Assembly: GCF_055900595.2 (NCBI RefSeq)
Contig: NZ_CM148325.1
Length of the DNA stretch: 64,000 nt
Strand: one strand, 5' to 3'
Each line of letters opens with the position of its first letter. Position 1 is the first letter of the stretch. The translations under genes were made by a program, and so were the position numbers. The notes under the pieces are model-generated. The model ran no database searches. It was not told the DNA's origin and was given only the letters and a program-made list of their open reading frames with translations. This document shows, piece after piece, positions 11,209-50,750 of this stretch.

Positions 11209-11234
11209 TGTCAGAATTTTATGAGGTATGACGA

Positions 11235-11705
11235 ATGGACATAACAAAAATCCTGAATACGAATCGCGTTATTTTAGATATGCAAGCGACGAATAAAGCG
11301 GAGGCGATTGAAGAATTAACTAATCTTCTCAAAAAAGATGGTGCGATCGATTGTCGGGAAACCTTTATTAAAGATGTCTGGCAGCGCGAAGCGGAAGGCT
11401 CGACTGGTTTTGAAAATCATATTGCGATCCCGCATGGTAAATCTTCAGCTGTGATTAATACTACGCTGGCAATTGGCCGTACCCGGCAGGATATTCCCTG
11501 GGAAACGCTGGATGGCAGTAGCGTGCGCTGTATTATTTTATTTGCGGTACGTCTTGAAGATCAAAATACCACCCATATCCGTTTACTTTCCCAGGTCGCG
11601 GGCGCGCTGGCGGATGATGACATCATAGAACAATTGTTAGTTGAGACGAGTCCGCAAAAAATCATTGATCTCTTTAGTCAGTATGCACAATCCGATGTCT
11701 GCTAA
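11235..11705 (+). CDS. PTS fructose-family EIIA component
   Basis: 156 aa; EIIA(Fru/Mtl/Ntr) phosphorylation-site motif HIAIPHG. Confidence 0.8.
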   Translation: MDITKILNTNRVILDMQATNKAEAIEELTNLLKKDGAIDCRETFIKDVWQREAEGSTGFENHIAIPHGKSSAVINTTLAIGRTRQDIPWETLDGSSVRCIILFAVRLEDQNTTHIRLLSQVAGALADDDIIEQLLVETSPQKIIDLFSQYAQSDVC

Positions 11706-11722
11706 ATAACAGGGAGTATGTC

Positions 11723-12037
11723 ATGAATATTGTCTGTGTTGCCGCCTGTACGGCGGGTATTGCTCATACCTATATTGCTCGTGAAAAGTTAATCAAAGGA
11801 GCAAAAGCTCTGGGCCATACCATTAAAGTTGAAACCCAGGGAACCATTGGTACAGAAAATGAATTACAGGCGGCAGATATCTCTGCTGCTGACGTCGTGA
11901 TTCTTGCTGTAGATGTGAAAATAAAAGGAGAAGAACGCTTCACCAATAAACGTATTGTGCGAGTAAAGACAGAGATTGTCATTAAATCGCCCGTTCAATT
12001 TCTTGAAAAGGTCGAAAAATCACTGGGAAACAAATGA
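11723..12037 (+). CDS. PTS fructose-family EIIB component
   Basis: 104 aa; motif CTAGIAHTYIA matches fructose-type EIIB CxxGIAHT active-site Cys loop. Confidence 0.8.
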   Translation: MNIVCVAACTAGIAHTYIAREKLIKGAKALGHTIKVETQGTIGTENELQAADISAADVVILAVDVKIKGEERFTNKRIVRVKTEIVIKSPVQFLEKVEKSLGNK

Positions 12038-12061
12038 TCCTTATACTGGAGGGATCTTAAT

Positions 12062-13153
12062 ATGAAAGACAATAAAATTCCGGTTTCACAGGAAATTAAA
12101 AAACATTTATTAACCGGCATCTCGTGGATGATACCCCTTATTGTGGCCGCCGGGATATGTATTGCGTTGGGGCAAGTTCTTGGCGGTACAGATGTTGGTG
12201 AAAAAACAGGAACAATCCCGTGGATGCTTAATCAGATTGGCGGCTGGGGAATGGGGCTGATTGTGCCGCTGATTAGCGCGGCAATTGCCTATTCTATTGC
12301 CGATCGTCCTGGATTTGCCCCGGGCCTGATTGTCGGCTTTCTCTGCGGGCAAATCCATACCGGATTTATTGGCGGTATGTTGGGTGGTTTCCTGGTGGGC
12401 TACACCATTTTGCTACTTAAACGCTATATCCGCCTGCCGCAGTCGATGCAAGGACTCATGCCAATCATGGTGTTGCCGGTATTAAGCACCATTATCGGTG
12501 GGCTGTTAATGATGACGCTGATTGGTAAACCCATCGCCTGGTTACAAGAAGCACTGATTCATTTGCTCGAGTCGATGCAGGGCGGATCGCGCTTCCTGAT
12601 GGGGGCCATACTTGGCGCGATGGCAACCTTCGATTTCGGTGGTCCGGTAAATAAAACAATGTCGTTGTTTTCCGATGGCTTGCTGGTCAGCGGCGTCTAT
12701 GGGCCAGAAGCCGTGAAATTTGTCGGCTCAATCATCCCTCCGTTTGGCATCACACTTTCGTTCTTACTGACACGCCATAAATACACCCGTGCGGAGCGCG
12801 AGGCGCTGAAAGCCGCGTTTCCGATGGGGATCTGCATGATCACTGAAGGAGTCATTCCAATCGCCGCGCGTGACTTGCTGCGAGTGGTGGGATCTTGTGT
12901 GGTGGCTTCTGCGGTAGCTGGCGGCTTGATCATGGTGTGGGGCGTGGAGAGTCCGGTTCCGCATGGCGGCCTGTTTGTTGTGCCTTTGTTCACCCATCCT
13001 CTGCTGTTTTGCCTGGCGCTGGGTATAGGCACGGTGATTTGTGGCGTGATGCTTTCACTCTGGAAGAAACCGGTAACGGAACGTGACGAAGAGTTTGACG
13101 AACTGAGCGATCAAAAGCTGAAAGATGAAGAGATCACTTTCACCCTCGAATAA
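12062..13153 (+). CDS. PTS fructose-family EIIC permease
   Basis: 363 aa polytopic membrane protein directly after EIIA/EIIB genes. Confidence 0.8.
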   Translation: MKDNKIPVSQEIKKHLLTGISWMIPLIVAAGICIALGQVLGGTDVGEKTGTIPWMLNQIGGWGMGLIVPLISAAIAYSIADRPGFAPGLIVGFLCGQIHTGFIGGMLGGFLVGYTILLLKRYIRLPQSMQGLMPIMVLPVLSTIIGGLLMMTLIGKPIAWLQEALIHLLESMQGGSRFLMGAILGAMATFDFGGPVNKTMSLFSDGLLVSGVYGPEAVKFVGSIIPPFGITLSFLLTRHKYTRAEREALKAAFPMGICMITEGVIPIAARDLLRVVGSCVVASAVAGGLIMVWGVESPVPHGGLFVVPLFTHPLLFCLALGIGTVICGVMLSLWKKPVTERDEEFDELSDQKLKDEEITFTLE

Positions 13154-13164
13154 CCGGAGGCCCT

Positions 13165-14016
13165 ATGTTTGCCGATATGAAAAGTATGGTGATGAAAGCC
13201 TGGCATGAACATTACGCCTTGCTGGCGATCAACTGTATGAATCTGGAAAGTGCTCACGCAGCTATCCGCGTGGCGGAGAAGAATCGCGCTCCGATCATTC
13301 TCAATCTCTATCAGGGGCATCTGGCGCATTTTCCTGCACCCGTCGCGGCGGCAGTGGTTAAAACGCTCGCGGAATCTGCCTCAGTACCGGTCGCTCTGGC
13401 GCTTGATCATGGCAAAAATCCGGACTGTATTCGTCAGGCGTTTCGTGCTGGTTTCAGCGGATTAATGATTGATGCTTCTGCTTTTCCCCTGGAGGAAAAC
13501 GTGCGCCAGACCAGGGCGGTGGTGGAACTCGCCGCCGGCGCGCAGCTCTGCGTGGAAGGCGAACTGGGCCATCTGGCAGATGCGCCGCGTTACGACCAGG
13601 CCACCAATGCCGACCTGATGACGCAACCCACTGATGTGGAAACGTTTATCGCGCAGACAGGCATTGATCTACTGGCCGTCTCGGTAGGCACGGCGCACGG
13701 CATGTACGCGCCTGGTGTTGTACCTGCTATTGATTTTCAGCGTCTGGCGGAGATTTTCCACTGCTCGAGCGTGCCTCTGGCATTACATGGCGGTAGCGGT
13801 ACGCCGTTCGATCAGCTCCAGCTCTGTACGACGCTGGGGGTAGCAAAAATCAACGTGGGGGCGGCCATTTTTGAACGGGGGAAATCCGCGCTCCTGCATA
13901 CCCTCTGTCACGATATATCCATTGAACTGGTGGACGCGCTGAAAGCTATGGAACTGGCCTTCGAAGAAGCGGTTACACCGTATTTACAGGCGAGCGGCTC
14001 TATCGGCAAAGCCTGA
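13165..14016 (+). CDS. class II ketose-bisphosphate aldolase (GatY/KbaY/FbaA family), paralogue 1
   Basis: 283 aa; class II aldolase signature region ...LALDHGKN... and GxxxGxxKINV-type C-terminal pattern. Confidence 0.8.
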   Translation: MFADMKSMVMKAWHEHYALLAINCMNLESAHAAIRVAEKNRAPIILNLYQGHLAHFPAPVAAAVVKTLAESASVPVALALDHGKNPDCIRQAFRAGFSGLMIDASAFPLEENVRQTRAVVELAAGAQLCVEGELGHLADAPRYDQATNADLMTQPTDVETFIAQTGIDLLAVSVGTAHGMYAPGVVPAIDFQRLAEIFHCSSVPLALHGGSGTPFDQLQLCTTLGVAKINVGAAIFERGKSALLHTLCHDISIELVDALKAMELAFEEAVTPYLQASGSIGKA

Positions 14017-14096
14017 TTCATTTTCTGTCATGGCCTTTATGCCAGTGCAATAACGCACCGGCAGGGCGGACTACACGCTGAAACTGGAGATTTAAC

Positions 14097-14957
14097 ATGT
14101 TAGTTTCGATGAAAGAATTACTGCAACCTACCCGCCAGCACGGCTTTGCCATTGGCGCATTTAATGTGGCGGATAACTGTTTCCTTCGCGCAGTCGTGGA
14201 TGAAGCAGAAGCGACAAATACTCCGGCGATTATTGCTATCCATCCCAGCGAACATGATTTTGTGGGCGATGCCTTTTTCGCTCACGTTCGCGAAATCACG
14301 CAGCGTAGTCCGGTGCCGTTTGTGCTGCACCTCGATCATGGCGCCTCTGTGGAGCACGTTTTGCGGGCGATTCGCTGTGGATTTACCTCGGTGATGATCG
14401 ACGGTTCGCTGCTGCCGTATGAAGAGAACGTGGCGCTGACCGCAGAAGTGGTTCGCCTGGCTCATGCGGTTGGCGTGTCGGTTGAGGGTGAGCTGGGGAC
14501 CATCGGACAAACAGGAACGTCAGTGGAAGGTGGAGTTTCACAAGTGACCTACACTGACCCGGCGCAAGCCGCCGATTTTATTGCTCGTACAGGGGCCGAC
14601 ACACTGGCGGTAGCGATTGGTACGGCACACGGCATCTATCCGAAAGGGATGCAGCCGAAGCTGCAAATGGACATTTTGCGCGACATTGCCGGGCGCATTG
14701 ATATTCCATTGGTGTTGCACGGTGGTTCGGCAAACCCGGACGCGGAGATTGCTGAATCCGTTACGCTCGGCGTTGGCAAAATCAATATCTCCAGCGATAT
14801 GAAATACGCCTATTTCCAGAAAGTGCGTGAAATTCTCGCTAAAGAGAGCTGGTGGGACCCGAACGTCATCTATCCGGATGCGATTAGCGCGGCGCGGGAA
14901 GTCATTCGCCACAAAATGAAACTGTTCGGTTCGCTCGGTAAAGCATCACTGTACTAA
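14097..14957 (+). CDS. class II ketose-bisphosphate aldolase (GatY/KbaY/FbaA family), paralogue 2
   Basis: 286 aa; motifs HLDHGAS, LVLHGGS, KINISSD typical of zinc-dependent class II aldolases. Confidence 0.8.
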   Translation: MLVSMKELLQPTRQHGFAIGAFNVADNCFLRAVVDEAEATNTPAIIAIHPSEHDFVGDAFFAHVREITQRSPVPFVLHLDHGASVEHVLRAIRCGFTSVMIDGSLLPYEENVALTAEVVRLAHAVGVSVEGELGTIGQTGTSVEGGVSQVTYTDPAQAADFIARTGADTLAVAIGTAHGIYPKGMQPKLQMDILRDIAGRIDIPLVLHGGSANPDAEIAESVTLGVGKINISSDMKYAYFQKVREILAKESWWDPNVIYPDAISAAREVIRHKMKLFGSLGKASLY

Positions 14958-15004
14958 GCCAGAAGGGCGGGGTGACCCGCCTTTTACGCAACAAGGAACG
15001 AGAT

Positions 15005-15937
15005 ATGCACTATCTGGGGTTGGATATTGGTGGGACCAAAATCGCCGCCGTCGTCATGGATGCGCATGGCTGGGAGATTCGCCGTTACCGCTGCCCGACG
15101 CAAAAGTCGACATATCAACAATTTGTCTCATGCGTTGTGGCGCTTATCGAGCAGATTAGGCGGGACGTTCAACGACCGATGCTGACAGGGATCGCCTTAC
15201 CCGGCAGTATCTCGCCACTCACTGGCCTGATTAAAAATGCGAATATTCAGGTGATTAACGGTCATGCGTTACAGGCTGATTTGCAGCAATTGCTTGGGCA
15301 ACCGGTGGTGATAGCCAATGATGGTAACTGTTTCGCGCTATCAGAAGCTTGCGACGGTGCCGGGCAAGATTATGATGTGGTATTTGGTATTACGCTTGGC
15401 ACTGGCTGCGGCGGTGGCATTGCCATCAAGCAACGACCGTTTATAGGGGCCTGGGGAAATGCTGCCGAATGCGGTCATATCACGTTGCCAGGCTATACGG
15501 AGCAGGAAGATGGTCCATCAGTCAGTTGCTATTGCGGCAAACACAACTGCGTGGAGTCGTTTGTTTCCGGCAGCGGTTTTAGTGAACGCTATCAACAGAT
15601 GACTGGTAACTTGCTCATTCCTGCGGCGATTGTCACCCTGGCACAACGTGGTGATGCTTGTGCCATGCAGCAGGTGGCACGTTTTCGCCAACAGCTTGCC
15701 CGCACGCTGGCAACCATCGTTAACGTTGTTGACCCTGGCGTGATTGTGATCGGCGGCGGGCTTTCGAATGTGGAACTGCTTATCACCGATCTGAACGCAG
15801 AAGTCGCTCCACTGGTTTTCACCGATCAATTCACCACTCCCATTGTAAAAGCGCAGCACGGCGACAGTAGCGGAATGCGTGGCGCTGCCTGGCTTGCTAT
15901 GCGCAACGGAGAAGCCAATGAAACGCTCACAAATTAA
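15005..15937 (+). CDS. ROK-family sugar kinase
   Basis: Start taken at MHYLGLDIGGTKI (ATP-binding DxGGT motif); Cys-rich zinc motif CYCGKHNC characteristic of ROK kinases. Confidence 0.75.
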   Translation: MHYLGLDIGGTKIAAVVMDAHGWEIRRYRCPTQKSTYQQFVSCVVALIEQIRRDVQRPMLTGIALPGSISPLTGLIKNANIQVINGHALQADLQQLLGQPVVIANDGNCFALSEACDGAGQDYDVVFGITLGTGCGGGIAIKQRPFIGAWGNAAECGHITLPGYTEQEDGPSVSCYCGKHNCVESFVSGSGFSERYQQMTGNLLIPAAIVTLAQRGDACAMQQVARFRQQLARTLATIVNVVDPGVIVIGGGLSNVELLITDLNAEVAPLVFTDQFTTPIVKAQHGDSSGMRGAAWLAMRNGEANETLTN

Positions 15938-16598
15938 TTATGTTATTGATAAAGCACATGCCATTGCGCAGACCTTCCGCGTTTGTTTGCCAGAGTTCGC
16001 CTATTTTACGGTGGATGACTGGCTGCAGCGGGAACGGGATAACTGGCAAGAAGTAGTCGACTTACAGCTCGGTTGGGATATCACCGATTTTGGTCGTGGT
16101 GATTTCAACCAAACGGGACTAACACTGCTAACGATGCGCAACGGCGCGCTGGGGTCGGCGGCATATCCAAAACCGTATGCTGAGAAAATGTTGCAGATCC
16201 AACAAGATCAGCAGACTCCCTGGCATTTTCACACCCACAAAATGGAAGATATCCTCAATCGGGGCGGTGGAGACTTATGCATGCAGTTGGCCTGGGCCAA
16301 CGAAGCCAATCTCTGTGATGATCAACGAGTCATTACCGTGAGTGTTGATGGTCAGCGGCGTACCATGAAACCTGGTGAAACGCTGGTGCTAAAGCCGGGG
16401 CAGGGCATTTGCCTGCCGCCGCGTCTGTATCATCGCTTCTGGGCGGAAAAAGCGTTTGTTCTCGGCTGGGAAATTTCGATGGTAAATGATGACCAACACG
16501 ATAATTATTTTCTTGAGCCGGGAGGACGTTTTCCGGCGATAGAAGAAGATGAACCGGTGAAATGGTTATTGTGCAGTGAGTATGGAATTTTGCGCTAA
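15918..16598 (+). CDS. cupin-superfamily sugar isomerase (D-lyxose/D-mannose isomerase-like)
   Basis: About 226 aa from MKRSQINYV; His-containing cupin motifs (WHFHTHKMEDI); overlaps the end of the kinase gene by about 20 nt, suggesting translational coupling. Confidence 0.6.
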   Translation: MKRSQINYVIDKAHAIAQTFRVCLPEFAYFTVDDWLQRERDNWQEVVDLQLGWDITDFGRGDFNQTGLTLLTMRNGALGSAAYPKPYAEKMLQIQQDQQTPWHFHTHKMEDILNRGGGDLCMQLAWANEANLCDDQRVITVSVDGQRRTMKPGETLVLKPGQGICLPPRLYHRFWAEKAFVLGWEISMVNDDQHDNYFLEPGGRFPAIEEDEPVKWLLCSEYGILR

Positions 16599-16607
16599 TA
16601 ACGGGGA

Positions 16608-16645
16608 ACGCTAGCGCTGATATCCGCTAGCGTCCTTATTTTTAC
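16608..16645 (+). terminator. rho-independent terminator of the frz operon
   Basis: Perfect 9-bp stem ACGCTAGCG / CGCTAGCGT with 8-nt loop followed by CCTTATTTTT. Confidence 0.5.
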
Positions 16646-29954: not shown

Positions 29955-30205
29955 GGTTCTCTCCCTAAAAATCTGTCTGGCAGGGTAGCGATTTGTGCGC
30001 ATTGTCACGATTGAGATTTTTTAAGGTGAGAGGGAATTGATAACTTGTAGTTATGTGAAATTGTTATTTTCTGTAGTGTGAATGCATTATTCTGATTTCG
30101 TGATAAGTAAAATGCATTAGAAAAAGTATGGAGTAATTAAACGTGAGGACGAAACTATATGCGTAGCGCCGCTGTAATTTACAACGGCCTACGGAGATAT
30201 GTTGT

Positions 30206-31195: not shown

Positions 31196-31912
31196 ATGCG
31201 TCCAGCAGGCCGTAGCAATAATCAGGTGCGTCCCGTTACCCTGACTCGTAACTATACAAAACATGCAGAAGGCTCGGTGCTGGTCGAATTTGGCGATACC
31301 AAAGTGTTGTGTACCGCCTCTATTGAAGAAGGCGTGCCGCGCTTCCTGAAAGGTCAGGGCCAGGGCTGGATCACCGCAGAATACGGTATGCTGCCGCGTT
31401 CTACTCATACCCGTAATGCCCGTGAAGCGGCGAAGGGTAAGCAGGGCGGCCGCACGATGGAAATCCAGCGTCTGATCGCTCGTGCATTGCGCGCCGCAGT
31501 AGATTTGAAAGCCCTCGGTGAGTTTACTATTACGCTGGACTGCGACGTACTTCAGGCTGATGGCGGCACCCGCACTGCTTCTATCACCGGTGCTTGTGTT
31601 GCACTAGCCGATGCCCTGAATAAACTGGTTGAAAATGGCAAGCTGAAAACCAACCCGATGAAAGGGATGGTAGCCGCGGTTTCTGTCGGGATTGTGAACG
31701 GCGAAGCGGTTTGCGATCTGGAATACGTTGAAGACTCTGCCGCTGAAACGGACATGAACGTGGTGATGACCGAAGACGGGCGCATCATTGAAGTGCAGGG
31801 AACGGCGGAAGGCGAGCCGTTTACCCATGAAGAGCTACTCACCTTGTTGGCGCTGGCCCGAGGGGGAATCGAATCCATTGTAGCGACGCAGAAGGCGGCG
31901 CTGGCAAACTGA
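31196..31912 (+). CDS. rph: ribonuclease PH (apparently full-length, 238 aa)
   Basis: From [30 protein letters not shown]; reads through to a C-terminus ending ...ATQKAALAN just before the pyrE attenuator. Confidence 0.9.
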
Positions 31913-31977: not shown

Positions 31978-32619
31978 ATGAAACCATATCAGCGCCAGTT
32001 TATTGAATTTGCGCTTGGCAAGCAGGTATTAAAGTTTGGCGAGTTTACGCTGAAGTCCGGGCGCAAAAGCCCCTATTTCTTCAACGCCGGGCTGTTTAAT
32101 ACCGGGCGCGATCTGGCACTGTTAGGCCGTTTTTACGCTGAAGCGTTAGTGGATTCCGGCATTGAGTTCGATCTGCTGTTTGGCCCTGCTTACAAAGGGA
32201 TCCCGATTGCCACCACAACTGCCGTGGCGCTGGCGGAGCATCATGACCTGGACCTGCCGTACTGCTTTAACCGCAAAGAAGCAAAAGACCACGGTGAAGG
32301 CGGCAATCTGGTTGGTAGCGCGTTACAAGGACGCGTAATGCTGGTGGATGATGTGATCACCGCCGGAACGGCGATTCGCGAGTCGATGGAAATTATTCAG
32401 GCCAATGGCGCGACGCTTGCTGGTGTATTGATTTCGCTCGATCGTCAGGAGCGTGGTCGCGGCGAGATTTCGGCAATTCAGGAAGTTGAGCGTGATTACA
32501 ACTGCAAAGTGATCTCTATCATCACCCTGAAAGACCTGATTGCTTATCTTGAAGAGAAGCCGGAAATGGCGGAACATCTGGCGGCGGTTAAGGCCTATCG
32601 CGAAGAGTTCGGCGTTTAA
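31978..32619 (+). CDS. pyrE: orotate phosphoribosyltransferase
   Basis: 213 aa from [13 protein letters not shown]; PRPP-binding motif [13 protein letters not shown]. Confidence 0.9.
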
Positions 32620-32690
32620 AAATATGCGCTGCGCAGGTTTTTACTGTGCGCAGCGTGATGCGGTTTAAGATATCGTGTTAATCTGCTTTC

Positions 32691-32883
32691 GCCAGCAGTG
32701 GCAATAGCGTTTCCGGCCTTTTGTGCCGGGAGGGTCGGCGAGTCGCCGACTTAACGCCAGTAGTTTGTCCAGATACCCAAAGTCGCTCCATTGTACTTAA
32801 GTACGCTTCGCGTACGTCGCGCTGACGCGCTCAGTACAGTTACGCGCCTTCGGGATAGTTTGAGGGTATTGCCGCTGTTGGTG
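32691..32883 (+). ncRNA. retron msr-msd region (template/primer RNA for msDNA), bounded by a1/a2 inverted repeats
   Basis: a1 GCCAGCAGTGGCAATAGC (32691-32708) pairs with a2 GGTATTGCCGCTGTTGGT (about 32865-32882) at 17/18 positions when G-U pairs are allowed; internal palindromes (GTACGC-TTC-GCGTAC) fit an msd stem; lies immediately 5' of the RT gene. Confidence 0.6.
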
Positions 32884-32915
32884 CCTCTTTTGGTCGCCGT
32901 GATGTGGAGAGTGGA

Positions 32916-33875
32916 ATGGATGCTACCCGGATAACCCTTCTGGCGCTTGATTTGTTCGGCTCGCCGGGCTGGAGCGCCGATAAAGAAATACAGCGGCTGT
33001 ATGCGCTCAGTAATCATGCCGCACGCCATTACCGACGGATTATTCTTTCTAAGCGTCACGGCGGTCAGCGGGTGGTGTTAGCCCCTGATTACTTGCTCAA
33101 AACCGTACAGCGCAACATTCTTAAGAACGTCCTTTCACAATTCCCTCTTTCCCCTTTTGCTACCGCCTACCGACAGGGTCGCCCAATCGTCAGCAACGCG
33201 CAGCCTCACTGCCAACAGCCGCAGATCCTTAAACTCGATATCGAAAACTTTTTCGATAGCATTAGCTGGTTACAGGTCTGGCGTGTGTTTAGCCAGACCC
33301 AGTTGCCACGCAATGTGGTAACCATGCTGACCTGGCTTTGTTGCTATAACGACGCGTTACCGCAGGGGGCGCCAACTTCGCCTGCCATTTCCAATCTTGT
33401 GATGCGCCGTTTTGATGAGTGCATAGGGGAATGGTGTCAGGCTCGGGGAATTACCTACACCCGCTACTGCGATGACATGACCTTTTCTGGTCACTTCAAT
33501 GCCCGCCAGGTTAAAAATAAAGTATGCGGATTGTTAGCGGAGCTGGGCCTGAGCCTCAATCAACGCAAAAGTTGCCTGATAGCTGCCTGTAAGCGCCAGC
33601 AGGTAACCGGGATTGTTGTTAATCACAAGCCACAGCTTGCCCGTGAAGCGCGCCGGGCGCTGCGTCAGGAAGTACACTTGTGCCAAAAATATGGCGTTAT
33701 TTCGCATCTTAGTCATCGTGGTGAACTTGATCCTTCTGGCGATCTCCACGCACAGGCAACGGCGTATCTTTATGCTTTGCAGGGAAGAATAAACTGGTTA
33801 TTGCAAATCAATCCTGAGGATGAGGCCTTTAAACAGGCGAGGGTGAGTGTAAAGCGAATGCTGGTGGCATGGTAA
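32916..33875 (+). CDS. retron-type reverse transcriptase (Ec107-like, 319 aa)
   Basis: RT motifs LPQGAPTSPAISNL and YTRYCDDMTF (YxDD catalytic box) plus retron-specific VTG motif (QQVTGIVVNHKP); 319 aa if started at MDATRITL; located between pyrE and slmA. Confidence 0.85.
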   Translation: MDATRITLLALDLFGSPGWSADKEIQRLYALSNHAARHYRRIILSKRHGGQRVVLAPDYLLKTVQRNILKNVLSQFPLSPFATAYRQGRPIVSNAQPHCQQPQILKLDIENFFDSISWLQVWRVFSQTQLPRNVVTMLTWLCCYNDALPQGAPTSPAISNLVMRRFDECIGEWCQARGITYTRYCDDMTFSGHFNARQVKNKVCGLLAELGLSLNQRKSCLIAACKRQQVTGIVVNHKPQLAREARRALRQEVHLCQKYGVISHLSHRGELDPSGDLHAQATAYLYALQGRINWLLQINPEDEAFKQARVSVKRMLVAW

Positions 33876-33918
33876 GAAAAGCGTCAGGCAGACGTTTCTG
33901 CCTGAACGTTTGGGAGAA

Positions 33919-34515
33919 TTACTGCAACTGCGCAGCAATTAGCGGCCAGCGGGCGTCAAAGTCATCCGTCGGGCGGTATTTAAACTCGCTGCGGACAAAG
34001 CGTGACAGCATACCTTCACAGAAGGCCAGGATCTGGCTTGCCAGCAGGGTTTCGTCGGTGGTGTAACCTTCACCCTCACGCATTCTCTTTTCACGCAATA
34101 CCTGACGCAACTGCGCTTCAATACGCTCGAATAGCTGGTTGATGCGCCCTTGCAGGCGATCCTGTTCAAACATTAGTGCATGACCAGTGAGGATGCGGGT
34201 CAGGCCAGGATTACGCTCACCAAAACCGAGAAGCAGCAACACAATCAGACGCAGGCGCGCTGTGGTGTCTTTCTCATCTTTCAGAATCAGATTGATGCGA
34301 GTAATCAGGCTATCTTCGATAAACTCAATCAGGCTATCGAACATGCGGGTCTTACTGGGGAAGTGGCGATACAGTGCCGCTTCGGAAACGCCGACAGAGG
34401 CGGCCAGTTTTGCCGTCGTGATACGTTGGCTTCCATCGCTGGATTCCAGCATCAGCGCCAGAGACTGAAGTATTTCCTCGCGACGGTTCCTTTTCGCAGT
34501 TTGTTTTTCTGCCAT
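33919..34515 (-). CDS. slmA: nucleoid occlusion factor SlmA (TetR family)
   Basis: 198 aa from [20 protein letters not shown]; TetR HTH. Confidence 0.9.
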
Positions 34516-43060: not shown

Positions 43061-43850
43061 ACTGAAAGAGCCGTTTGCCACGTTATGGCGCGGTAAAGAT
43101 CCTTTTGAGGAAGTTAAAACCTTGCAGGGTGAGGTATTTCGTGAACTGGAAACTCGCCGCACTCTGCGCTTTGAAATGGCGGGCAAAAGCTATTTTCTCA
43201 AATGGCATCGCGGCACGACCCTGAAAGAGATAATCAAAAATTTACTCTCATTGCGGATGCCAGTATTAGGTGCAGACCGTGAATGGAATGCGATTCATCG
43301 GCTGCGGGATGTCGGCGTTGATACTATGTATGGGGTGGCATTCGGCGAAAAAGGCATTAATCCGCTGACCAGAACTTCGTTTATTATTACCGAAGATCTG
43401 ACGCCAACTATCAGTCTGGAAGATTACTGTGCTGACTGGGCGACTAACCCACCAGATGTCCGCGTAAAGCGTATGCTTATTAAACGTGTCGCGACGATGG
43501 TGCGCGATATGCATGCTGCGGGCATTAACCACCGTGACTGTTATATCTGTCATTTCCTGCTGCACTTGCCTTTTTCTGGTAGGGAAGATGAGTTAAAAAT
43601 TTCAGTAATTGACCTGCACCGGGCGCAGCTTCGCACGCGCGTTCCACGTCGTTGGCGCGATAAAGATCTTATTGGGCTTTATTTTTCTTCGATGAATATT
43701 GGCCTGACTCAGCGTGATATCTGGCGATTTATGAAGGTATATTTTGCCGTACCGCTTAAAGACATACTCAAGCAGGAACAAGGGCTGCTGTCGCAAGCAG
43801 AAGCAAAAGCCACGAAAATCAGGGAAAGAACGATTAGAAAATCGTTGTAA
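43053..43850 (+). CDS. waaP: LPS core heptose(I) kinase
   Basis: 265 aa from [12 protein letters not shown]; kinase-like motif ([11 protein letters not shown]). Confidence 0.9.
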
Positions 43851-43865
43851 TTTCCGGAGAGAAAT

Positions 43866-44882
43866 ATGAGTGCCCACTATTTTAATCCACAAGAGATGAT
43901 CAATAAGACAATCATCTTCGATGAAAGGCCAGAGGCGTCAGTGGCATCATCATTCCATGTTGCTTATGGCATTGATCAGAACTTTCTTTTTGGTTGTGGT
44001 GTTTCAATCACGTCAGTTTTGTTACATAACAACGACGTGAGTTTTGTCTTCCACGTTTTTATTGATGATATCCCTGACGCCGATATCCAGCGTTTATCCC
44101 AATTGGCGAAAAGCTATCATACCTGTATCCAGATCCATCTGGTAAATTGTGAACGGCTTAAGGTATTACCGACGACCAAAAATTGGTCTATTGCCATGTA
44201 TTTCCGTTTTGTAATTGCAGATTACTTTATTGATCAACAAGATAAGATCCTGTACCTGGATGCTGATATCGCCTGTCAGGGAACCTTAAAACCGCTGATA
44301 ACAATGGATCTTGCCAATAACGTTGCTGCTGTTGTTACTGAACGCGATGCTAACTGGTGGTCGTTACGGGCTCAAAGTCTGCAGTGTAATGAACTTGAAA
44401 AGGGTTACTTTAATTCAGGTGTCCTGTTAATTAATACACTAGCGTGGGCGCAGGAGTCCGTTTCTGCTAAAGCGATGTCGATGCTTGCTGATAAAGCCGT
44501 CGTTTCCCGTTTAACCTATATGGATCAAGATATACTAAATCTTATCCTGTTAGGGAAAGTTAAATTCATTGATGCTAAATACAATACGCAATTTAGTTTA
44601 AATTATGAATTAAAAAAATCATTTATTTGTCCAATTAATGATGAAACCGTATTAATTCATTATGTCGGCCCGACAAAACCTTGGCATTACTGGGCCGGTT
44701 ATCCAAGCGCGCAGCCATTTATCAAAGCCAAAGAAGCATCGCCATGGAAAAATGAACCGTTAATGCGGCCAATTAACTCAAATTATGCTCGTTATTGCGC
44801 TAAGCATAATTTTAAACAAAATAAACCAATTAACGGGATAATGAATTATATTTATTATTTTTATTTAAAGATAATAAAATGA
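43866..44882 (+). CDS. waaO: LPS outer-core alpha-glycosyltransferase, GT8 family (WaaO/WaaI-like)
   Basis: 338 aa; GT8 DxD motif YLDADIACQG; AT-rich. Confidence 0.7.
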   Translation: MSAHYFNPQEMINKTIIFDERPEASVASSFHVAYGIDQNFLFGCGVSITSVLLHNNDVSFVFHVFIDDIPDADIQRLSQLAKSYHTCIQIHLVNCERLKVLPTTKNWSIAMYFRFVIADYFIDQQDKILYLDADIACQGTLKPLITMDLANNVAAVVTERDANWWSLRAQSLQCNELEKGYFNSGVLLINTLAWAQESVSAKAMSMLADKAVVSRLTYMDQDILNLILLGKVKFIDAKYNTQFSLNYELKKSFICPINDETVLIHYVGPTKPWHYWAGYPSAQPFIKAKEASPWKNEPLMRPINSNYARYCAKHNFKQNKPINGIMNYIYYFYLKIIK

Positions 44883-44898
44883 CATTGAGAAAAGTTAA

Positions 44899-45894
44899 AT
44901 GAATGAATTTATAAAAGAACGGTTTTCGTATTTAGCAGATAATAAAAAAGAAAACGTCCCAGAGCTAAATGTTTCCTACGGTATCGATAAGAATTTTTTG
45001 TATGGTGCTGGCGTTTCAATTTCTTCCGTTTTGATTAATAATTCAGATATTAATTTTGTCTTTCATGTTTTCACTGATTATGTGGATGATGATTATTTAA
45101 AGTCATTTGATGAAACAGCAAAACAATTTAATACCTCAATTATTGTATATTTAATTGACCCAAAATACTTTGCTGATCTGCCGACGTCACAGTTTTGGTC
45201 GTACGCGACATACTTCAGGGTATTGTCCTTTGAATATCTGAGTGAAAGTATTTCCACACTGCTGTATCTGGATGCCGATGTCGTTTGTAAAGGAAGTCTG
45301 AAACCTCTCACAAAAATTATATTTAAAGATGAGTTTGCTGCGGTTATTCCTGACAATGATAGTACTCAGGCGGCATGTGCAAAACGTCTTAACATTCCCG
45401 AAATGAATGGACGTTATTTCAATGCAGGCGTTATCTATGTCAATCTTAAAAAATGGCATGAAGCAAATTTGACACCGTATTTACTCACGCTTTTACGAGG
45501 GGAAACTAAATATGGCTCTCTTAAATATTTAGATCAGGATGCGTTGAATATCGCATTTAATATGAATAATATCTACCTCGCGAAGGATTTTGATACTATT
45601 TATACCCTGAAAAACGAACTTCATGATCGTAGTCATCGAAAGTATCAGCAAACCATTACCGATAAAACAGTATTGATTCACTATACAGGGATAACTAAAC
45701 CATGGCATAGCTGGGCTGGATATCCGTCTGCATCATACTTTAATATCGCGCGTGAACAATCTCCCTGGAAGAAATATCCTCTTAAAGAGGCGCGGACTGT
45801 TGCAGAAATGCAGAAACAATATAAGCATCTGTTTGCCCATGGTGAGTATATAAAAGGCATAACTTCATTAATTAAGTACAAGCTTAAGAAATAA
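44899..45894 (+). CDS. LPS outer-core alpha-glycosyltransferase, GT8 family (WaaT-like position)
   Basis: 331 aa; GT8 motif YLDADVVCKG; position between waaO and waaY as in R1/R4 core loci. Confidence 0.6.
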   Translation: MNEFIKERFSYLADNKKENVPELNVSYGIDKNFLYGAGVSISSVLINNSDINFVFHVFTDYVDDDYLKSFDETAKQFNTSIIVYLIDPKYFADLPTSQFWSYATYFRVLSFEYLSESISTLLYLDADVVCKGSLKPLTKIIFKDEFAAVIPDNDSTQAACAKRLNIPEMNGRYFNAGVIYVNLKKWHEANLTPYLLTLLRGETKYGSLKYLDQDALNIAFNMNNIYLAKDFDTIYTLKNELHDRSHRKYQQTITDKTVLIHYTGITKPWHSWAGYPSASYFNIAREQSPWKKYPLKEARTVAEMQKQYKHLFAHGEYIKGITSLIKYKLKK

Positions 45895-45903
45895 ATTACT
45901 CTT

Positions 45904-46596
45904 ATGATTACAAGTATACGTTATCGCGGCTTCTCATTTTATTACAAAGATAATGATAATAAATATAAAGAAATCTTTGATGAAATACTGGCCTATAATT
46001 TTAAAACAGTAAAAGTATTACGTAATATTGATGATACCAAAGTATCGTTGATTGATACGAAATATGGTCGCTATGTTTTTAAAGTCTTTGCTCCGAAAAC
46101 GAAAAGGAATGAACGTTTTTTAAAATCTTTTGTAAAAGGTGACTACTATCAGAATTTGATCGTTGAAACCGATCGTGTCAGAAGTGCAGGTCTTACTTTT
46201 CCTAATGATTTTTATTTTCTGGCTGAGCGTAAAATTTTCAACTATGCCAGTGTTTTTATCATGCTTATCGAGTATGTCGAGGGCGTAGAGCTCAATGATA
46301 TGCCGATTATTCCAGAAAATGTTAAAGCAGAAATTAAGGCTTCAATGGAAAAATTGCATGCCTTAAATATGCTATCGGGCGACCCACACCGGGGTAACTT
46401 TATCGTTAGTAAAGATGGTGTCAGGATAATTGACCTATCCGGTAAAAGCTGTACGGCAGAGCGTAAAGCTCGTGATCGTCTGGCCATGGAACGTCACCTG
46501 GGTATTGCCAACGAAATAAAAGATTATGGCTACTATTCAGTAATCTACAGAACCAAACTACGCAAATTTATTAAAAAATTAAAAGGCAAAGCGTAA
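45904..46596 (+). CDS. waaY: LPS core heptose(II) kinase
   Basis: 230 aa; small kinase-like protein with DPHRGNF motif. Confidence 0.75.
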   Translation: MITSIRYRGFSFYYKDNDNKYKEIFDEILAYNFKTVKVLRNIDDTKVSLIDTKYGRYVFKVFAPKTKRNERFLKSFVKGDYYQNLIVETDRVRSAGLTFPNDFYFLAERKIFNYASVFIMLIEYVEGVELNDMPIIPENVKAEIKASMEKLHALNMLSGDPHRGNFIVSKDGVRIIDLSGKSCTAERKARDRLAMERHLGIANEIKDYGYYSVIYRTKLRKFIKKLKGKA

Positions 46597-46621
46597 ACCA
46601 CACAGTCAAAACGGAACCAAC

Positions 46622-47650
46622 ATGGATTTATTAGCTGAGAGTATTACTGAAGTCGCTGTCTCTGGGGAAATTGCTAACACCGATCGTGTGTTAAATATCG
46701 CTTACGGTATTGACCGTAATTTTTTATTTGGTGCGGCAGTATCTATGCAATCAGTTGTTATGCATAACCCAGACCTTGCGGTTAAGTTTCATCTCTTTAC
46801 CGACTACATTGATGAAGATTATCTACAACGTGTTAACGCTTTTACCAGCAAAAATGCTAACGTTGAAGTAAGAATTTATAAAGTCTCCAGTGTCTTTATT
46901 GATATCTTCCCCAGCCTGAAACAGTGGTCTTATGCAACATTCTTCCGTTTAGTTGCGTTCCAGTATCTGAGTGAAACTATTGAAAATCTGTTATATATCG
47001 ATGCTGATGTCATCTGTAAAGGCTCATTAGCTGGATTGCTTGATATTAATTTTGATGGCGATAAATTCGCAGCTGTTATTAAAGATGTGCCTTTTATGCA
47101 GGAAAAACCAGCGAAGCGTCTGGCTATAGAGGGGCTTCCAGGGAATTATTTCAACGCCGGTGTAGTATATCTGCAGCTTGAAGCGTGGGCGAAAAATGAT
47201 TTTATGAATAAAGCCATTGCTATGCTGGCAAGTGACCCGCAGCACACGAAGTATAAATGCCTTGATCAGGATATTTTAAATATTCTGTTCTTTGGTCATT
47301 GTATTTTTATTAGCGGCGATTATGATTGCTTTTATGGCATTGACTATGAGTTAAAAAATAAAAGCGATGAAGATTATAAAAAGACCATTACCGATGATAC
47401 TAAGCTGATTCATTATGTTGGCGTAACGAAGCCCTGGAACGACTGGACGAATTATCCCTGCCAGAAGTATTTTAATGAGGCTTATCAAGCTTCTTGCTGG
47501 AATGATGTGGCGTTTATTCCAGCCACGAATGAAAAACAGTATCAAGTGAAATCCAGACATTTGAAAAGAAATGGTAATATTGCATCTTCATTTTACTATT
47601 TCATGCTCTATTATAGTAAGAAAATAGCGCGTAAGCATTTTTCCAAATAA
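46622..47650 (+). CDS. LPS outer-core alpha-glycosyltransferase, GT8 family (WaaW-like position)
   Basis: 342 aa; GT8 motif YIDADVICKG. Confidence 0.6.
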   Translation: MDLLAESITEVAVSGEIANTDRVLNIAYGIDRNFLFGAAVSMQSVVMHNPDLAVKFHLFTDYIDEDYLQRVNAFTSKNANVEVRIYKVSSVFIDIFPSLKQWSYATFFRLVAFQYLSETIENLLYIDADVICKGSLAGLLDINFDGDKFAAVIKDVPFMQEKPAKRLAIEGLPGNYFNAGVVYLQLEAWAKNDFMNKAIAMLASDPQHTKYKCLDQDILNILFFGHCIFISGDYDCFYGIDYELKNKSDEDYKKTITDDTKLIHYVGVTKPWNDWTNYPCQKYFNEAYQASCWNDVAFIPATNEKQYQVKSRHLKRNGNIASSFYYFMLYYSKKIARKHFSK

Positions 47651-47681
47651 TTATTAAGACTAATCATCCAGGGATTTTTTA

Positions 47682-48455
47682 ATGAACTTGCCCATTTATA
47701 TTGTCTCACTTAAAAGAGATATTGAGCGAAGAAATAAAATAAATGATGTCTTTCATCGATTAAACATTAATTTTGATTTTTTTGATGCCATAGATGCTAA
47801 AGATCCTCAAAATAAAGAAATTATTAATGAAATGAGATTAAGTGGTGTCGGCGCAGAAATGACTGATGGAGAAATTGCTTGTACGTTAAGTCATCAGCTT
47901 ATATATCAGGATATGATAGATAAAAATATAGAATGGGCAGTCATTCTAGAGGACGATGTTATCGTCAATGAGAAATTTAAAAATTTCCTTCAATACTTTA
48001 ATCCTTCTGAAAAAGACAAGTTAAAATATAATAATTTGTATTTGCTTGGAGGTCAGAAAGGATTACATGATTATCCAGTATTGGGGCAAAGCCTTTTTAG
48101 TAAAGTTAAGGTAAGTACTTGTATTTTTCGTCGTGTTAATTTTAATAAAAATAAAATTCGTCGTACATGTTCATATTTGATGAATAACGATATGGCACTA
48201 AAGTTGCTCAAATTGACAAAGGATTATGGCACCTATCGAGCTGATAGCTGGAAGTTAATGCATCAACATAATATTATAAAAGATTTTTATTTAGACGAAA
48301 TAATATTACATCCTATTTTAAATGAGTTTAATAGTCACCTTGAAAGTGAAAGGCTTTTAATATCGGAAAAAAAACAACCCAGGACAAGGCTTCAGAAAAA
48401 AATGAAGTTTATACGTTCCTGGATAAAGGTGGCTTTTTTTTCTCTTTTGAAATGA
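47682..48455 (+). CDS. LPS outer-core beta-glycosyltransferase, GT25 family (WaaV/WaaX-like)
   Basis: 257 aa; GT25 (Lic2A/LgtB-like) N-terminal pattern IYIVSLKRDIERRNKI...FFDAID. Confidence 0.55.
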   Translation: MNLPIYIVSLKRDIERRNKINDVFHRLNINFDFFDAIDAKDPQNKEIINEMRLSGVGAEMTDGEIACTLSHQLIYQDMIDKNIEWAVILEDDVIVNEKFKNFLQYFNPSEKDKLKYNNLYLLGGQKGLHDYPVLGQSLFSKVKVSTCIFRRVNFNKNKIRRTCSYLMNNDMALKLLKLTKDYGTYRADSWKLMHQHNIIKDFYLDEIILHPILNEFNSHLESERLLISEKKQPRTRLQKKMKFIRSWIKVAFFSLLK

Positions 48456-48489
48456 GATTGTTAATTTCAATTTATTGTGAGATATTAAC

Positions 48490-49743
48490 GTGGAAGTAAA
48501 AATTGAGCAATTTCGAAATAATAGCTGTAATTTTATTTTTTTATTATATTTAATCGGTTTGTTGTTTGTGCCAATTGATCTAAATATTACCACTAAAATA
48601 ATTAATGCTACAGGTGCATTTTCTCTTTTTTTATTAATTGTAAATAACAAGCATAATTATAATAAAAATATCATTATATTAATTCTTGGCTTACTTCTTT
48701 TGGGTGCAATGAACCTGATATGGTATGAGTTTTATAAAACAGAAGATGTAGTATATAGAAATGCTTATCGAGGCTATCTTGAGTCTGGAAAACTATTAGT
48801 ATTTAGCTCGTTGACATTTTTATTACTAAGTAAAAATAAATTCAGGCAAAATGAAAAGCTACATTTTATTTCAGCTATCTTAGTTCAAATAATCATGCTA
48901 TGTAGAGCATATTATCAAGGGATATATTTGCATGCAGACCGCATTCCCCTCTCCGCCATGAATGGGAATATTGGTCAGATGGGGGCAGCGACTATTGCGG
49001 CTTATGTGATTACATTCACTACTTTATATTCTTCAATTGTATTCATCAAAATGCAATCGAAATATAAATGGTTTCTATTTTATGCTAACTTTGCTTTAAG
49101 CTTTGCAGCAGTAATGATGACAGGAACGCGTGCGGCAATTTTCACATTCCCACTTATGATTATGGTCATATTATTTCTTCAGCATCGTGATCAAAAAGTG
49201 TTTTTATTTAAAGGATTGAGTGGTGTTTTTATATTGCTACTTGCTTGTGGTTTGATATTTAATAAGGAAATTGAGAGGCGAATTAATTCATTAAAAGCTG
49301 ATGTTATTTCATATGCTACAAAAAATAACAGTCAATCCTCGGTCGGAGCACGTTTTGCAATGGTTAATGCAGGAATTAAAGGAAGTCCTGATGGTTTTAA
49401 TTGGCAATCTCTTGAGCAGCGTGCTGAAAAGATAAAAGCATTAAGTGCAGAAAATAATATTTATAGTGGAGCTTTATTATTCCTTGATGTACATATGCAT
49501 AATGAAATTGTTGAAGCTCTTTCCACGAAAGGGAAAATTGGTCTTCTTGTTCTTATTATGTTCTATGTTGCAATGATCTACTACTGTATCCGGGAGAAAA
49601 AATATATACTTTTGGTTTTCCCTGCTTCTATTATGTTATTTGGCATTAGTGATGTCATTACGCATGCTAAACCAATACCGGCATCGTGGATTGTGTGCCT
49701 CTTCCTGTCTATATCGTTTTTGAGTAAAAAAGAACCACAATAA
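48490..49743 (+). CDS. waaL: O-antigen ligase (start codon uncertain)
   Basis: 417 aa, very hydrophobic polytopic protein with large periplasmic loop; last gene of outer-core operon; AT-rich. Confidence 0.75.
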   Translation: MEVKIEQFRNNSCNFIFLLYLIGLLFVPIDLNITTKIINATGAFSLFLLIVNNKHNYNKNIIILILGLLLLGAMNLIWYEFYKTEDVVYRNAYRGYLESGKLLVFSSLTFLLLSKNKFRQNEKLHFISAILVQIIMLCRAYYQGIYLHADRIPLSAMNGNIGQMGAATIAAYVITFTTLYSSIVFIKMQSKYKWFLFYANFALSFAAVMMTGTRAAIFTFPLMIMVILFLQHRDQKVFLFKGLSGVFILLLACGLIFNKEIERRINSLKADVISYATKNNSQSSVGARFAMVNAGIKGSPDGFNWQSLEQRAEKIKALSAENNIYSGALLFLDVHMHNEIVEALSTKGKIGLLVLIMFYVAMIYYCIREKKYILLVFPASIMLFGISDVITHAKPIPASWIVCLFLSISFLSKKEPQ

Positions 49744-49790
49744 TAAAAACGTTGATTAAGTAAGTGGGTATAATGCCCACTTACTATTTA

Positions 49791-50750
49791 TTAAATCAAT
49801 GTAATTTCTTTATAAACAGCCGCTGCTTCTAAATTATTTAAACTCTTTAGCGGAGCCCTACAAACCATCTGATTCTTCCCATACCCGCCAATTAATCCCG
49901 GATCGGTTGGCCCATAAACCGTGATATTGGGTCTATCCAGTGCCGCCGTTAAATGGCTTAACCCCGTATCCACCGACACCACAAATTTAGCCCCCGCCAG
50001 CACACAAGCAACGCCTTCCAGACTCATCTTCGGCAATACGTCGACATAATCAAATCCTTCCGCCAGTCTTTTTGCCCGCTCTTCTTCATGCGGCGCGCCC
50101 CACGGAAGTTTAATGCGAATCCCTGAATCTGCCAGTAAACCAATCAACTCTCGCCAGTGTGCTTCCGGCCAGTGTTTATCATCACGGGTTGTTGCATGAA
50201 GAAATACGGCATATTCGCCAGCATCTGTCGGCAGGTTCGTCAGGAAATGCTGCGCAATGGCATAATCGCCCTGAGTCTGCGGTTTGCTGTAACCCAGACT
50301 TTTGGCAAACAGTTCGCGGGTGCGTTCTACGGCGTGCTGCTGTTTTGCAATATGATGCTTACGATTGTAAAACAGGCTGGCTAAGGGTTCGCGAGCGGTT
50401 TGCCAGTCCATTCCATGCTTTACGCCATGCGCCAGACGCGTCACCAGCGCCGCGCTTTTTACCAGCCCCTGAGCGTCGATAATTGCGTCATAGTTCTCTG
50501 CTTGTAGCGCTTCACGAAACGCTTTCCGTTCAGCTTTTATGGGGGCCGAGAACCAGGCTTTACGCCAGCGACGTATTGCCACAGGAATAACTCGCTCAAC
50601 GGCAGCGTGCCAGGAAGGAATCTGTGCGAACCCTTCTTCCACCACCCAGTCAAACTTAATCCCTGGGATTGCCTGCTGGGCATCAGTGAGTGCGGGCAGC
50701 GTATGGAGAACATCGCCCATCGACGATGTTTTAACGATCAGAACCCGCAT
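49791..50750 (-). CDS. waaC: LPS heptosyltransferase I
   Basis: 319 aa GT9; hldD-waaF-waaC operon. Confidence 0.9.
   Translation of the reverse strand: MRVLIVKTSSMGDVLHTLPALTDAQQAIPGIKFDWVVEEGFAQIPSWHAAVERVIPVAIRRWRKAWFSAPIKAERKAFREALQAENYDAIIDAQGLVKSAALVTRLAHGVKHGMDWQTAREPLASLFYNRKHHIAKQQHAVERTRELFAKSLGYSKPQTQGDYAIAQHFLTNLPTDAGEYAVFLHATTRDDKHWPEAHWRELIGLLADSGIRIKLPWGAPHEEERAKRLAEGFDYVDVLPKMSLEGVACVLAGAKFVVSVDTGLSHLTAALDRPNITVYGPTDPGLIGGYGKNQMVCRAPLKSLNNLEAAAVYKEITLI

Follow-up and report, generated by a model that had tools for sequence, protein, structure and literature searches.

How a retron might work when no effector gene lies beside its reverse transcriptase (RT) is the question raised by a 1.3-kb element between pyrE and slmA in the 64,000-nucleotide stretch of DNA analysed here (hereafter the window; NCBI RefSeq assembly GCF_055900595.2, contig NZ_CM148325.1). 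The element is, to near certainty, retron Ec107 (Retron-Eco5), a two-part retron that is complete in itself; its RT model, YCDD catalytic box, pyrE/slmA site and two-part architecture are all like those of the published element (Herzer et al., 1992). The initial annotation had described a retron Ec107 without an adjacent or fused effector, unusual among characterized retrons, and this was borne out by the RT profile and by the lack of an effector ORF or an extra domain; the linked or fused effector of the tripartite definition of retrons was absent. The puzzle is not the fresh one that the annotation took it to be. Both the Ec107 element and its missing effector are already in print, the latter having been stated for the Ec107 branch by Mestre et al. 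(2020; PMC7736814).

Alignment with K-12 gave an insert size of 1297 bp, and the junction alignment showed that the K-12 pyrE/slmA terminator palindrome, CGCCGGATGAAAAGTCATCCGGCG, is replaced by the retron insert (Table 1). Reviews of retron Ec107 report a matching picture, with a short palindrome replaced at this site. Upstream of the RT, 296 nt hold the retron RNA gene; downstream, the 43 nt between the RT stop codon and the end of the insert fold into a hairpin. No second ORF of the insert was conserved in relatives, a 102-aa antisense ORF being confined to E. coli alleles. Because the flanks are filled in this way and no second ORF is conserved, the annotation was right that an accessory gene would not fit. 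ORF analysis and the lack of a conserved ORF also excluded mis-set gene boundaries that hide an effector gene. Both ends of the insert are marked by hairpins. Relatives 70–72% identical to the window copy occupy the pyrE/slmA gap in Pseudocitrobacter and in locus L001 (related loci bear L numbers) and have homologous boundary hairpins, with a GCTGCG...CGCAGCGTGAT hairpin at the position of the left one; the right hairpin, CAGGCAGA...TCTGCCTG, is kept in same-site copies of other genera.

Table 1. Coordinates of the retron Ec107 locus, numbered from the first letter of the window.
Feature	Position	Strand	Basis or remark
pyrE	31978-32619	+	left flank; TIGR00336, E = 3e-71
Whole retron Ec107 insert	32621..33917	+	absent from K-12; blastn of the window against K-12 gave no match here
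Left boundary hairpin, GCGCTGCGCAG...CTGTGCGCAGCG	32626..32655	+	read from sequence; directly 3′ of the pyrE stop codon
Extended -10-like box TGTTAATCT, putative promoter	32676..32684	+	conserved TGnTAnnnT; ~6 nt ahead of the RNA 5′ end
Retron non-coding RNA gene (msr-msd), 191 nt	32691..32881	+	covariance model R1, fold, covariation
a1 arm of terminal inverted repeat	32692..32706	+	pairs with 32867-32881
Putative branching G (2′-OH primer)	32707	+	G of the ATAG motif at the a1 end
msr hairpin 2 with invariant GCGAGTCG core	32732..32752	+	core conservation, covarying stem pairs
msd stem-loop, msDNA template	32770..32865	+	inverted repeat 32776-32797 / 32833-32854, fold
a2 arm of terminal inverted repeat	32867..32881	+	inverted repeat, covariation
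Retron RT, 319 aa, YCDD catalytic box	32916..33875	+	profile matches, motifs, structure model
Right boundary hairpin	33884..33905	-	terminator scan; terminator-like on the slmA strand
slmA	33919-34515	-	right flank; NF007015, E = 7e-93

The RT ORF (32904..33875, plus strand) encodes 323 aa if translation begins at a GTG codon and 319 aa if it begins with the ATG at 32916. The ATG is likely to be the start; GGAG precedes it at 32906-32909, RefSeq uses it at the locus of E. coli strain E200086, which is 99.9% identical, and the RTs of relatives likewise begin with MD(A/S)TR. Among PADLOC models, RT_Ec107-like matched residues 9–318 (E = 7e-133) with 441 bits, as compared with 313 bits for the best RT_III-A model, the next-best matches. 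RVT_1 made up the entire Pfam content, and the top sequence match among solved structures was the Ec86 RT (E = 1e-39). In the 319-aa numbering, the NAxxH motif reads NAQPH at 94–98 (N94, A95, H98), YCDD lies at 184–187 and VTG at 230–232.

The annotation had offered three possibilities: an effector encoded elsewhere in the genome that works in trans, a non-defence or unknown role, and a cryptic effector in the C-terminal ~90 aa of the RT. Structure prediction and fold search ruled out the third and leave the first two as candidates. In an AlphaFold (AF2) model of the RT (pLDDT 94.6), residues 243–318 formed four helices (pLDDT ~95), and Foldseek aligned the 319-aa model with the Ec86 RT subunit over 309–310 columns (TM 0.74–0.77). 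The RTs of Ec78, Ec83 and Eco7, all three of which work with separate effectors, aligned equally well. Because this high-confidence model aligns end to end with RT subunits that carry no effector, such as that of Ec86, the C-terminus is modelled as an ordinary thumb; the protein is predicted to consist of fingers, palm and thumb only, with no extra fold. Of the annotation's overall reading, then, the effector-less retron stood and the hidden effector did not. The Ec107 RT resembles that of Ec86/Eco1 (type II-A3) in size and fold, and the general msr-msd logic is alike in the two retrons, but Ec86 uses a separate effector (title of PDB 7v9x), Ec107 is without one and the RTs are only 26% identical.

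The flanking genes did not supply the missing component. PyrE and SlmA are unaltered housekeeping proteins, 99.5% and 100% identical, respectively, to the proteins of retron-free K-12, and were rejected as co-opted effectors on this near-identity and on the lack of a match to any PADLOC family; the positive controls, a type III-A phosphoribosyltransferase (PRTase) and a winged-helix protein (L085, L090), matched at E = 4e-89 and 2e-23. PyrE had the PRPP loop alone in common with the retron PRTase (E = 0.05). A DRT2-type repeat gene was excluded, since a concatemer of the msd has 3–4 stop codons in each of the six frames.

Besides the retron, the window-specific segments longer than 1 kb within 30 kb on either side were positions 1-1082 at the window edge, a PTS sugar operon and, in the waa cluster, the variable core region; neither the operon nor the waa region gave a pointer to defence, and on these two a nearby effector or defence island was rejected. 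The stretch 9384-16637, between yicI and yicH, is a 7.25-kb insertion when compared with K-12. The products of its genes are a PRD-type regulator, PTS IIA/IIB/IIC, a pair of class-II aldolase-like proteins, a ROK kinase and one protein resembling cupins, and it looks like a sugar-utilization island rather than a defence island. Part of the waa LPS-core cluster (43747-49833) had no K-12 match, which suggests a core type different from that of K-12.

The RNA gene was characterized with a covariance model, R1, built from a 15-sequence alignment of the regions upstream of the relatives' RTs. R1 had a sole match in the window, at the msr-msd gene, with 172 bits (E ~1e-36); its training set includes the window sequence, and relatives left out of R1 still scored up to 160 bits. 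The RNA is predicted to fold with an energy of -90.4 kcal/mol (z = -4.6). An Rfam scan of the locus returned no retron RNA family, only a chance lncRNA match. The a1 arm is followed by the ATAG motif, two msr hairpins and the long msd stem-loop. The a1 and a2 arms are 87% complementary before G-U pairs are counted, and all 13 pairs of their helix covary. G32707 was invariant in 15 sequences (alignment A4) and at least 75–90% conserved in 51 sequences (A7).

Conservation of the RNA exceeded what its neighbour retains at silent positions: between genera the whole RNA was 72–77% identical and the msd 75–82%, as compared with 39–45% for RT third codon positions. Several msr and msd motifs were invariant across phyla. 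The GCGAGTCG core of msr hairpin 2 was unchanged from E. coli to Lachnospiraceae and Neisseria, and the msDNA core GTAC...GCACAC-TCGTGTGC...GTAC was common across phyla. Compensatory changes were found in 27 of 42 predicted pairs in 15 sequences (E. coli, Neisseria, Lachnospiraceae). In 51 sequences, compensatory double changes affected 39 of the 42, 92% of cells were paired, and the covariation score was 0.59, as against ≤0.13 when partners were slid by one to three columns; these figures come from an alignment that was fitted to the model and is biased towards the structure in it. The window allele retains all the motifs needed for msDNA production.

About 6–8 nt before a1 lies the TGnTAnnnT box, which may be an extended -10 promoter. 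It was kept in L001, L004, L020 and Leminorella (L005), and Pragia (L007) has a looser form of it; a strict sigma-70 consensus scan made no call at 32676-32684. In three related Lachnospiraceae loci (L022, 5343-5707; L023, 5608-5928; L024, 2393-2752) the R1 match spanned 320–365 nt instead of ~190, implying a large insertion inside the RNA gene.

About 66 relatives, ranging from Enterobacterales to gut Firmicutes, retained the RNA-plus-RT architecture in unrelated housekeeping contexts, and at least 60 species-level genomes kept the two-part form at RT identities of 42–70%. Of 87 related loci, 66 had exactly one R1 match, which lay on the RT strand immediately 5′ of the RT gene. The Leminorella copy lies between cyaY and cyaA; in Pragia and Budvicia the unit is flanked by genes for a CdaR-like regulator and a galactarate-dehydratase-like protein, and the copies of Robinsoniella, Neisseria and Bariatricus have other, unrelated surroundings. 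Seven relatives picked by protein identity (Enterobacterales, Neisseria, Lachnospiraceae) had no neighbour in common. For 80 further genome loci, every ORF lying up to 3 kb from the RT was then entered into a clustering. PRTase_III-A (~290 aa) and WH_III-A (~100 aa) alone recurred as neighbours; they precede the RT at nine loci whose RTs are among the most distant (36–41% identity). Where the RT was at least 42% identical, the pair was never present and the neighbours were mixed housekeeping genes.

Other downstream genes, including those for MazG, YchF and WYL regulators, were rejected as recurrent neighbours, being one-offs or explained by synteny. PADLOC, run on ten sampled neighbours, reported a generic TatD-like match and a WYL regulator and nothing else. 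In Bariatricus massiliensis (L012–L014, 7005-7442) a 145-aa MazG-family gene begins 5 nt after the RT stop codon on the same strand; no other relative had a MazG-family gene next to the RT. In two Firmicutes loci, L031 and L061, an HTH regulator follows 30 nt and 21 nt, respectively, after the RT stop. The L031 regulator matched the PADLOC WYL model (E = 4e-59) and the L061 protein is similar by eye; the pattern was not recurrent.

A neighbour-joining tree divided the RTs cleanly into a PRTase-linked group without Ec107-type RNA and a stand-alone group with it, R1 having no match in PRTase-linked loci. By these sequences the stand-alone clade is placed as sister to the PRTase-linked type III-A retrons (Retron-Eco11, III-A3; III-A1-like L078–L098). 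Members of both clades make msDNA, but the RNA of type III-A retrons is of a different type, and these retrons defend by PRPP depletion and need for it a PRTase-like effector, to which a winged-helix protein may be added; Ec107 has neither. Mestre et al. (2020; PMC7736814) had described a stand-alone branch of RT clade 2 with 59 RTs, mostly from Gammaproteobacteria. The present survey reproduces and broadens that result, and extends the stand-alone clade to many gut Firmicutes. The same authors described clade 11 stand-alone retrons of Actinobacteria, which by the published description are likewise (msr-msd)-RT units without an associated protein, although they belong to another RT clade and have another host range.

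Within E. coli the element is patchily distributed, with carriers making up 381 of 5426 complete genomes (7%). Ec107 is dispensable, given this patchiness. All 381 copies were chromosomal, single-copy, full-length and located between pyrE and slmA. The E. coli alleles form at least four groups, up to ~6% apart, one of which occurs in EPEC E2348/69. The window copy is a minority allele, with ~95.5% DNA identity to most other carriers and at least 99% identity in only nine genomes; its RT is 96% identical in protein sequence to that of the L017 allele. The window as a whole is only ~96% identical to K-12. As compared with other E. coli alleles, rph (31196-31912) had a dS of 0.33–0.36, and pyrE and slmA had 0.04–0.09. 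The rph value and the K-12 identity suggest a divergent lineage or a recombined patch. At 30129-30205, dinD, which in K-12 lies between yicC and yicG, is absent, with ~1.1 kb of K-12 sequence reduced to 77 bp, as in E200086.

The five E. coli RT alleles sampled were all intact, with dN/dS of 0.12–0.23; between genera dN/dS was ~0.07, a rough figure because dS is saturated there. RT dN/dS of 0.07–0.23, together with compensatory changes in 39 of 42 RNA pairs, argues for a maintained, functional two-part unit and not a wreck. On these comparisons, the unit is kept by purifying selection across a deep clade. Same-site copies in different genera had a saturated RT dS (>3), as against 0.8–1.1 for the flanking genes, and simple vertical inheritance at pyrE/slmA was not supported by these values. 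In the tree, the RTs of Pragia (L007) and Budvicia (L021) clustered with those of Firmicutes and Neisseria, apart from the group of Escherichia, Pseudocitrobacter and Leminorella, in which L001, L004 and L005 fall. The two-part unit must thus have entered Enterobacterales on two or more occasions. The high RT dS relative to the flanks and the grouping of Budvicia and Pragia with Firmicutes together indicate that the unit has moved horizontally.

What such a unit does may be approached from its product. Production of msDNA by Ec107 is documented in the earlier literature, RNase H affects the length of msDNA-Ec107, and clade 2 retrons are among the top RT-DNA producers. By analogy with known retrons and from the Ec107 literature, a single transcript would carry both RNA and RT. 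The RT would bind the msr hairpins, prime from the 2′-OH of G32707 and copy the msd leftwards from ~32866, giving a branched, high-copy msDNA-Ec107 hairpin, which we take to be 107 nt long. The conserved msDNA core could then act as high-copy bait or as a sensor for a DNA-processing protein, with the output passing through an unlinked, probably core host partner or arising by direct sequestration, and with no adjacent toxin involved. The analogy here is with the sister type III-A3 retrons, whose msDNA is bound by the phage helicases UvsW and D10 (UvsW binding msDNA-Eco11).

We tentatively favour the reading in which the RT-msDNA particle is the working part, acting via an unlinked partner or by binding directly, and give it somewhat less than an even chance. 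A bolder version is possible but doubtful. In it, Ec107-like retrons would form a distinct class whose RT-msDNA particle is itself the effector, titrating or sensing a conserved phage or host DNA-processing protein directly, or acting via a core host enzyme. [quoted passage not shown] Their RT lineage differs from that of Ec107 (Drt2 model, 57 bits against a cutoff of 390; TM 0.53–0.56), and DRT2 makes a cDNA-encoded gene, whereas the Ec107 msd cannot encode a repeat ORF.

It is unlikely, though the context invites the idea, that the retron has been domesticated and now supplies a chromosomally resident RNA-DNA particle for the physiology of starvation or stationary phase. The surroundings were purely housekeeping at every locus examined, phage and plasmid records held no relative at 60% identity or more, and the pyrE/slmA site and boundary hairpins are common to Escherichia, Pseudocitrobacter and L001. 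Expression of Ec107 rises on starvation according to the review of Simon et al., and domestication was raised for clade 2 by Mestre et al. (2020; PMC7736814). A fixed host function is nevertheless hard to reconcile with patchy presence within E. coli, with an RT dS saturated between same-site copies whose flanks are not, and with the horizontal movement indicated by the Budvicia and Pragia copies; moreover, all characterized retrons are defence systems.

The element might instead be a relic, a type III-A-like retron that has lost its PRTase and winged-helix effector and makes msDNA to no further use; we regard this as quite unlikely. The sister relationship to PRTase-linked RTs and the 7% carriage in E. 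coli are in keeping with it, and effector loss was proposed by Mestre et al. (2020; PMC7736814). In type III-A3 retrons all three components, the effector included, are needed for defence, so that loss of the effector might simply abolish it. A functionless gene would, however, be expected to decay, and here the five sampled alleles are intact and every one of the 381 copies is full length. The low RT dN/dS, the conservation of the RNA, compensatory changes included, all the way from E. coli to Firmicutes, and persistence of the two-part form down to 42% RT identity likewise stand against a relic.

Decidedly improbable is a selfish element, a 1.3-kb unit persisting by movement into intergenic terminator hairpins without benefit to the host. 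Its precise, gene-free insertion into several different gaps between convergent housekeeping genes (pyrE/slmA, cyaY/cyaA, and CdaR-like regulator/galactarate-dehydratase-like gene), the boundary hairpins that it brings with it, and a tree that points to cross-phylum spread would all suit such a unit. Yet no integrase, transposase or target-site duplication was seen, each genome has one copy and the window one RNA gene, and conservation of the msd is stronger than mobility alone would need. We know of no retron with a demonstrated mobility mechanism. Finally, an effector present in cis after all, as a cryptic C-terminal fold, an overlooked ORF, a co-opted PyrE or SlmA, or a DRT2-like cDNA gene, is highly improbable: PyrE is indeed a phosphoribosyltransferase, and its gene, which precedes the retron in the same orientation, occupies the position that the PRTase gene has in type III-A1 retrons, but most relatives adjoin no PRTase, PyrE and SlmA are near-identical to the K-12 proteins and match no PADLOC model, the RT C-terminus is modelled as canonical thumb, the insert holds no conserved ORF and the msd concatemer is closed in all six frames.

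In the only systematic phage tests that we found, Ec107 was left out (Millman et al.), and we found no later anti-phage test of Ec107, or paper resolving the effector puzzle, in the literature that we searched. The present analysis removes the hidden-domain, hidden-ORF and PyrE options, documents selection on both the RT and the RNA, extends the clade and provides a covariance model for the RNA.

The mechanistic models of retrons all rest on a toxin that is restrained by the RT-msDNA complex. A large, selected clade without a toxin gene, which includes the element of EPEC E2348/69 and those of many gut Firmicutes, implies one of two things: an unlinked partner exists, or msDNA can act alone. 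For genome editing, Ec107 would represent a naturally non-toxic, high-output retron. Resolving its function would extend the retron paradigm, and, if the RT-msDNA particle is indeed the working part, Ec107 would exemplify retron function without any dedicated toxin gene.
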